This document shows positions 5,500 to 5,543 of a stretch of DNA of 9,739 nt, piece by piece; position 1 is the first letter of the stretch; every line of letters begins with the position of its first letter. The notes beneath the pieces were generated by a model. The model was not told where the DNA came from and did no database searches. It saw nothing but the letters and a program-made list of their open reading frames with translations. Position numbers and translations under genes: made by a program. Source of the DNA: Escherichia coli (GTDB lineage: Bacteria > Pseudomonadota > Gammaproteobacteria > Enterobacterales > Enterobacteriaceae); the NCBI RefSeq assembly GCF_003334815.1, contig NZ_QOWO01000062.1; one strand, given 5' to 3'.

Positions 5500-5513
5500 A
5501 ATCACATTCCAGC

Positions 5514-5537
5514 TAAAAGCCCGGCAAGCCGGGCGTT
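5514..5537 (-). terminator. Intrinsic terminator or attenuator-like hairpin between fecA and fecB: GC stem GCCCGGC/GCCGGGC followed by a U-run on the transcript
   Basis: Plus strand aaaa-gcccggc-aa-gccgggc at 5515..5534. On the minus-strand transcript this is GCCCGGCUUGCCGGGC followed by UUUU, 9 nt after the fecA stop (5544..5546) and about 20 nt before the fecB start. Confidence 0.6.
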
Positions 5538-5543
5538 AACACA

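Follow-up and report, generated by a model that had tools for sequence, protein, structure and literature searches.

The fec locus raises the question of how one promoter can yield a large excess of FecA, a transporter and cell-surface signal receptor in one, over the FecBCDE ABC transporter. The window, i.e. the whole stretch of 9,739 nucleotides of Escherichia coli DNA that was analysed, carries fecI, fecR, fecA, fecB, fecC, fecD and fecE, all on the minus strand; this was established from the ORFs of all six frames and from E. coli chromosomes that match the window at 100% (Table 1). The junctions within fecABCDE all overlap or abut except the one between fecA and fecB, which is the sole non-coding gap in fecABCDE and is identical in K-12. 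In this 44-bp spacer the initial annotation had pointed out a GC hairpin followed by a U-run, which was proposed to act as a partial terminator or attenuator that keeps fecBCDE below fecA, or else to serve in RNA processing or stability. Hairpin and U-run were borne out by sequence, folding and chance simulation, and very probably it is the hairpin that marks where the abundant fecA mRNA ends and that brings about the step-down before fecBCDE.

Table 1. Features of the fec locus in the window, in the order of transcription.
Feature	Coordinates	Strand	Remarks
fecI	9426..8905	-	ORF list and RefSeq annotation of a 100% identical E. coli record
fecR	8908..7955	-	
fecA, TonB-dependent ferric dicitrate receptor	5544..7868; stop TGA 5546..5544	-	ORF list and RefSeq annotation of a 100% identical E. 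coli record
fecA-fecB intergenic spacer, 44 nt	5500..5543	-	sequence reading, ORF list, annotation
RNA hairpin GCCCGG-CUUG-CCGGGC, six G-C pairs, tetraloop	5519..5534	-	5′ arm 5534..5529, loop 5528..5525, 3′ arm 5524..5519
U-run UUUU adjoining the 3′ side of the stem	5515..5518	-	full tail UUUUAGCU; AGCU after UUUU
Putative weak Shine-Dalgarno-like GGAA, 7 nt upstream of fecB ATG	5507..5510	-	direct reading
fecB, periplasmic binding protein; heads fecBCDE, which is poorly expressed	4597..5499; ATG 5499..5497	-	start as in RefSeq
fecC	4600..3602	-	
Second hairpin, 8 + 4 pairs, then UAUUAUUAUUUUCU	4534..4580	-	within the first 67 nt of fecC
fecD	about 3605..2649	-	
fecE	2648..1881	-	

Read on the minus strand, the transcript of the spacer is UGUGUUAAC-GCCCGG-CUUG-CCGGGC-UUUU-AGCUGGAAUGUGAUU, followed by the AUG of fecB. 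The stem starts nine nt past the fecA stop codon. The inverted repeat GCCCGGC/GCCGGGC, initially described as near-perfect, is perfect at the DNA level (arms of 7 nt, 2 nt apart), but no more than six of its pairs can form in RNA, so that the stem has six pairs and not seven. The free energy of the hairpin was −11.2 kcal/mol for the bare 16-mer and −12.6 kcal/mol with flanks, reaching −14.7 kcal/mol when an optional lower stem GUUAA/UUAGC was included. With short flanks, z scores of −2.2 to −2.8 were obtained against dinucleotide shuffles. Six G/C-only pairs with a loop of 3–8 nt and a following TTTT occurred in three of 300,000 random 44-mers (roughly 1 in 100,000) and in one of 300,000 shuffles of the spacer. 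A fold of the 71-nt context gave z = 0.01 and thus no excess stability, so that the free energy of the whole region is uninformative and the local test alone is informative. An Rfam scan of the entire window matched no family at the gathering threshold.

The stem-loop falls within the range of intrinsic terminators (GC-rich, about 5–14 pairs, loop of 3–8 nt), and a discriminant of the d'Aubenton-Carafa type was positive for the E. coli site (+26.9). Terminator prediction, initially recommended for the minus strand, placed the hairpin first among the terminator-like sites of the window on either strand. Intrinsic terminators carry a U-rich tract of about 7–9 nt right after the stem; the tail UUUUAGCU has four consecutive U and a U at five of its first eight positions (tail score 4.19), which as a sequence feature is compatible with a weak or leaky terminator; as the U-tract is this short, termination efficiency cannot be inferred from the sequence.

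REP elements are dispersed, multi-copy, imperfect palindromes of about 35 nt; the E. coli element is a perfect stem-loop of 16 nt. A 91-nt query around it found a median of one place per genome, in a search that a copy of the bare 16-mer would escape. The fec locus was present in 2,762 of 5,426 complete E. coli genomes (about half) and also on many Klebsiella plasmids. Over the 91 nt, 2,707 of 2,762 records were at least 99% identical; with the spacer near-invariant within E. coli, within-species data are silent on selection. Remnants of insertion sequences lie on both sides of the locus in the annotation of the identical E. coli E2865 record: downstream of fecE a frameshifted IS3-family transposase (window 1..984, with plus-strand ORFs 146..745 and 742..984), and upstream of fecI/ykiE an IS1F-like element just beyond window position 9718. 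These remnants and the patchy presence of the locus fit a mobile island.

Published RNA data bear directly on the junction. Section 20 of Braun et al. 2022 (PMC9249621), which summarises Enz, Braun and Crosa 1995 (Gene 163:13), reports a fecA mRNA of 2.5 kb on Northern blots, with the polycistronic fecABCDE mRNA seen by RT-PCR only. According to this summary, fecBCDE is down-regulated by the hairpin downstream of fecA, the stable 2.5-kb fecA mRNA is 'trimmed' from a transcript of 6 kb, and protein amounts track mRNA amounts, FecA being by far the most prominent. The proposed attenuation finds support in this down-regulation and in the Term-seq end described below, and the proposed alternative of processing or stability in the trimming. 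Going by this summary, the hairpin is the already described attenuator of the fec operon, confirmed here and not new: locus, element and proposed role are the same as in Enz, Braun and Crosa 1995, and nothing in the element as summarised there differs. As the hairpin has had its role in the published model of fec regulation since 1995, the confirmation adds little; what is added are exact coordinates, a Term-seq 3′ end tied to the hairpin, a comparison across genera and a possible second step-down inside fecC.

In the Term-seq data for K-12 of Adams et al. 2021 (PMC7815308, Supp. file 1; LB, OD600 0.4), a fecA 3′ end classed as 'primary' is given at coordinate 4514320 on the minus strand, with the flanking sequence GGGTCGTTGAAGTTCTGATGTGTTAACGCCCGGCTTGCCGGGCTTTTAGCTGGAATGTGAT. 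The sequence column of this file holds 61 bases, of which the 51st is the 3′ end; in this the file differs from its caption. The column layout was controlled with the thrL stop codon, with the end of the U8 run of sgrS and with the listed start-codon distance of the fecC entry (56), which fits this layout alone. K-12 position 4514320 corresponds to window position 5511 (minus strand), with an RNA ending in ...CCGGGCUUUUAGCU-3′, 8 nt past the last base of the stem and just before the GGAA. Transcripts ending at 5511 would lack the GGAA of fecB. An in vivo 3′ end about 7–9 nt past the stem is as expected of an intrinsic terminator, and exonuclease trimming could yield the same end. The fecA end is listed in one of the three growth conditions (PMC7815308). 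The bicyclomycin-based Rho-termination table of the same study has no entry for a fec gene, an absence that is weak evidence given the poor expression of the locus. The SMRT-Cappable-seq supplements had no fec entry, and a literature search on transcript ends at fecA and fecB added nothing further, the hairpin met in PMC8144685 being unrelated; no report of a hairpin mutant at fecA-fecB was found in the literature searched.

For a comparison across Enterobacterales, junctions were gathered from K-12, three plasmid lineages and 33 species genomes, and the fecA stop and fecB start were located in each. The genera covered, beside E. coli, were Klebsiella, Enterobacter, Kluyvera, Citrobacter, Xenorhabdus, Photorhabdus, Pectobacterium, Erwinia, Pantoea and Serratia. 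All 34 delimitable fecA-fecB spacers, 43 to 225 nt in length, contained a strong GC-rich hairpin soon after the fecA stop, and each distinct spacer was more stable than its own shuffles (z from −0.56 to −5.7). The hairpins fall into several types rather than a single homologous sequence. E. coli and Pseudenterobacter have GCCCGG-N4-CCGGGC with UUUU, and Xenorhabdus has an E. coli-type stem, without U-tail, in which matching insertions lengthen both arms. The stem of Photorhabdus, GCCGGGC-N4-GCCCGGC, is followed by UUUGCUAUUUCU and recurs in Pectobacterium with a non-U tail. Unrelated, longer GC stems with U-rich tails were found in Erwinia, Pantoea and Serratia symbiotica, stems of 11–17 pairs without U-tails in Kluyvera and Citrobacter, and a hairpin without U-tail in Enterobacter and K. 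indica. The Klebsiella/Enterobacter soli type, GCCGGGUAAGCGCAGCGCCACCCGGC, is a REP-like dispersed repeat: the 46-nt Klebsiella-type sequence hit 160 places across 63 plasmids, with no more than 13 in any one record, and these hits lie on both strands, in intergenic DNA that bears no annotation.

When hairpin and tail were scored together for the best site of each spacer, roughly half of the clades were terminator-like and half hairpin-only; the U-rich tail is kept in E. coli, Pseudenterobacter, Photorhabdus, Erwinia/Pantoea and S. symbiotica. With the hairpin in every spacer and the U-tail in about half, the hairpin is the conserved feature, and the comparison of sequences suggests that it is conserved as a 3′-end former or protector, not as a U-tract-dependent step. 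It is universal at the enterobacterial fecA-fecB junctions examined, though its sequence was replaced repeatedly, sometimes by REP-like repeats, so that a mobile palindrome fills the same functional slot in other genera.

Covariation could be followed within one class of spacers. MAFFT aligns the 3′ arm of E. coli (GCCGGGC) with the 5′ arm of the same sequence in Photorhabdus; because of this mismatch of arms, pairs were not counted across the two classes, and the Photorhabdus/Pectobacterium class was counted alone. In this class, 100% of the cells were paired and P. brasiliense showed one compensatory change from C-G to U-A, a single covarying pair that gives weak statistics. In alignment A2 (window 5511-5542 with the Photorhabdus/Pectobacterium loci), the 3′ arm and loop of E. 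coli, CCGG(C/T)T(T/C)GCCGGGC, stand against Photorhabdus TCCGTTCGCCGGGC, which lies upstream of the 5′ arm and includes it. The GCCGGGC arm may thus find its partner upstream in E. coli and downstream in Photorhabdus, a partner switch, or the match may equally be a coincidence of short GC palindromes.

Two further observations were made on these spacers. The fecA-fecB hairpin of Klebsiella-, Enterobacter-, Kluyvera- and Citrobacter-type fec operons is a REP-like repeat (L001:515-560 and L005; similar in L002, L006-L008, L011, L012 and L037). The spacer of Citrobacter sp. MGH106 (L013:1276-1500) has been expanded to 225 nt by an insertion (...CTTACACAAGTAAGTGACTGGGGTGAG...) and holds a separate 13-pair hairpin near fecB; the insertion looks like an ERIC/IRU repeat.

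The following course of events is proposed for E. coli. RNA polymerase would transcribe fecA from the FecI-dependent fecA promoter and, 9 nt after the fecA stop, would produce the six-pair G-C hairpin with its CUUG tetraloop, then UUUUAGCU. A fraction of the polymerases, probably the majority, would be released by leaky Rho-independent termination to give the RNA end at 5511, and the remaining ones would read through into fecBCDE. The hairpin would moreover keep 3′-to-5′ exonucleases off the end of the fecA mRNA, whether this end was made by termination or by cleavage of read-through RNA. Termination and shielding together would let the 2.5-kb fecA message accumulate while fecBCDE RNA stays scarce, and the outer-membrane receptor and signal transducer FecA would end up far above the ABC transporter. 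A ribosome terminating on fecA would, with 9 nt between stop codon and stem, extend over the 5′ arm, and tight coupling of transcription and translation could modulate read-through.

Leaky intrinsic termination in E. coli is likely: the UUUU on the stem, the end 8 nt downstream, the positive discriminant, the lack of a Rho signal and the U-tails on unrelated stems argue for it. Against termination alone stand the orthologue hairpins that lack a U-tail, about half of the total and including the REP-like ones, whose sequences point to protection as the conserved role, and exonucleases that stall at a hairpin leave an overhang of 8 nt as well. By its place behind fecA, the cistron with the more abundant mRNA (abundance as summarised in PMC9249621), the hairpin resembles a stabilising hairpin. 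Termination and processing with protection are not mutually exclusive, and their respective shares we infer. We lean towards reading the known intra-operon attenuator of fecABCDE as a leaky terminator whose hairpin also protects its product.

In the main rival reading, the hairpin would be a 3′ stabiliser only, with near-total read-through, an RNase E cut in or near the fecB start, 3′ exonucleases stalling at the hairpin and decay of the fecBCDE part. This would suit the orthologues without U-tail (Kluyvera, Citrobacter, Enterobacter, K. indica, Xenorhabdus and Pectobacterium), the dispersed REP-like repeat of the Klebsiella/Enterobacter soli version, which is of the classic stabiliser type, the 8-nt 3′ overhang, which suits exonuclease stalling, the AU-rich single-stranded stretch 3′ of the hairpin and the 'trimmed' 6-kb RNA summarised in PMC9249621. 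A pure exonuclease barrier, however, needs neither the UUUU on the E. coli stem nor the U-rich tails on several unrelated hairpin types, the terminator discriminant is positive, and the same summary describes down-regulated transcription as well, which makes stabilisation alone a possible but rather doubtful account. That the hairpin mainly tunes fecB translation, as a structure 8–19 nt upstream of a weak ribosome-binding site and without effect on 3′ ends, is very improbable. The stem does end 19 nt short of the fecB ATG and 8 nt short of the GGAA, and at Klebsiella-type loci the hairpin directly abuts the CAGGAG Shine-Dalgarno sequence; yet in the predicted folds the hairpin sequesters neither the Shine-Dalgarno sequence nor the start codon of fecB, orthologues place it anywhere between 11 and 87 nt from the fecB start, and both the Term-seq end and the 2.5-kb mRNA would be left unexplained.

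A neutral palindrome or repeat remnant, persisting in the only non-coding slot of the operon, or in a variant a DNA palindrome bound by a protein, has equally little chance of being the explanation. REP-like and ERIC-like repeats have indeed colonised orthologous spacers, and the spacer of E. coli, almost invariant in the 2,762 records, gives no signal of selection. Neutrality is contradicted by the presence of a hairpin in 34 of 34 spacers, even the shortest of 43–44 nt, and by the in vivo RNA end at the hairpin, with which the published mRNA imbalance agrees; pairing that is kept while the sequence changes speaks against the DNA site. A sequence-specific DNA operator was ruled out on the same ground, pairing being conserved but sequence not.

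Several other candidates were discarded. An RNase III site at fecA-fecB was ruled out with a stem of just 6–11 pairs, and a terminator for the opposite strand by its plus-strand tail, GTTAACAC. A Rho-dependent end of fecA is unlikely in view of the 44-nt spacer, the resumption of translation at fecB and the absence from the Rho table. No promoter-like site that could serve as an internal fecB promoter was found in the spacer.

The favoured reading of a leaky, protecting terminator can be set beside known systems. The rplL-rpoB attenuator and the rpsU-dnaG terminator of E. coli are leaky intrinsic terminators inside operons. As in these, a GC hairpin with a U-run lies between cistrons at fec and the distal genes are stepped down; unlike in these, the U-tract of fec is just 4 nt and termination by polymerase alone is putative. 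Intercistronic stabiliser hairpins are the malE-malF and hisJ-hisQ REP elements and those of Rhodobacter puf and papB-papA, where the upstream segment outlives the downstream one; an endonuclease cut followed by stalling of exonucleases at the hairpin is the mechanism for malE-malF REP and the puf and pap operons. The fec hairpin resembles the malE-malF REP type in its position at the 3′ end of a more abundant upstream cistron, and the fec spacers of Klebsiella and Enterobacter carry a REP-like repeat there, whereas E. coli has a single-copy stem-loop of 16 nt followed by a U-run and not a REP of roughly 35 nt. In the fatDCBA-angRT operon of Vibrio anguillarum, studied in the Crosa laboratory, expression reportedly differs across a hairpin after the receptor gene fatA, with an antisense RNA said to promote termination. 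Both are iron-uptake operons with transcripts that stop at a hairpin behind the gene of the outer-membrane receptor and with more receptor than distal message, but no antisense partner is indicated at fec.

The fecC-internal hairpin of Table 1 folds as GGUGCUGC..UGGG-loop-CCCG..GCAGCACU (4580..4548) and has the U-rich tail UAUUAUUAUUUUCU. An 'internal' Term-seq 3′ end lies 56 nt into fecC, at window position 4544, with 80,998 reads against 46,627 at the fecA end (PMC7815308). It scored 1.09 for Rho ('No') and 6.45 as an intrinsic terminator, for which the authors set a predictive threshold of 3.0 or more; the main text of PMC7815308 makes no mention of this end. Pairs were counted against the structure in alignment A3, of 15 Enterobacteriaceae-type fec loci and Xenorhabdus. 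In this alignment 89% of the cells were paired, versus 32–69% with a slid partner column, and three pairs showed compensatory changes (7 cells), with a covariation score reached by none of 500 shuffles. The compensations link synonymous third positions to second positions that change the amino acid between Val and Ala. The structure is not kept in Photorhabdus, Pectobacterium and Erwinia. Speculatively, the two hairpins might form a two-step staircase, in which the one inside fecC ends or protects fecAB transcripts and expression falls in the order FecA > FecB > FecCDE, a tentative idea that we hold to be rather unlikely. Its second hairpin would then sit in coding sequence because the overlap of fecB and fecC leaves no intergenic room.

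Early 3′ ends were also noted in fecI. One 'internal' Term-seq end is located 11 nt into the gene (window 9415, minus strand), with a Rho score of 0.40 and a terminator score of 1.10, and in M63 medium another is located at K-12 coordinate 4518148, about window 9339 (PMC7815308). Both lie just downstream of the Fur-regulated fecI promoter region.
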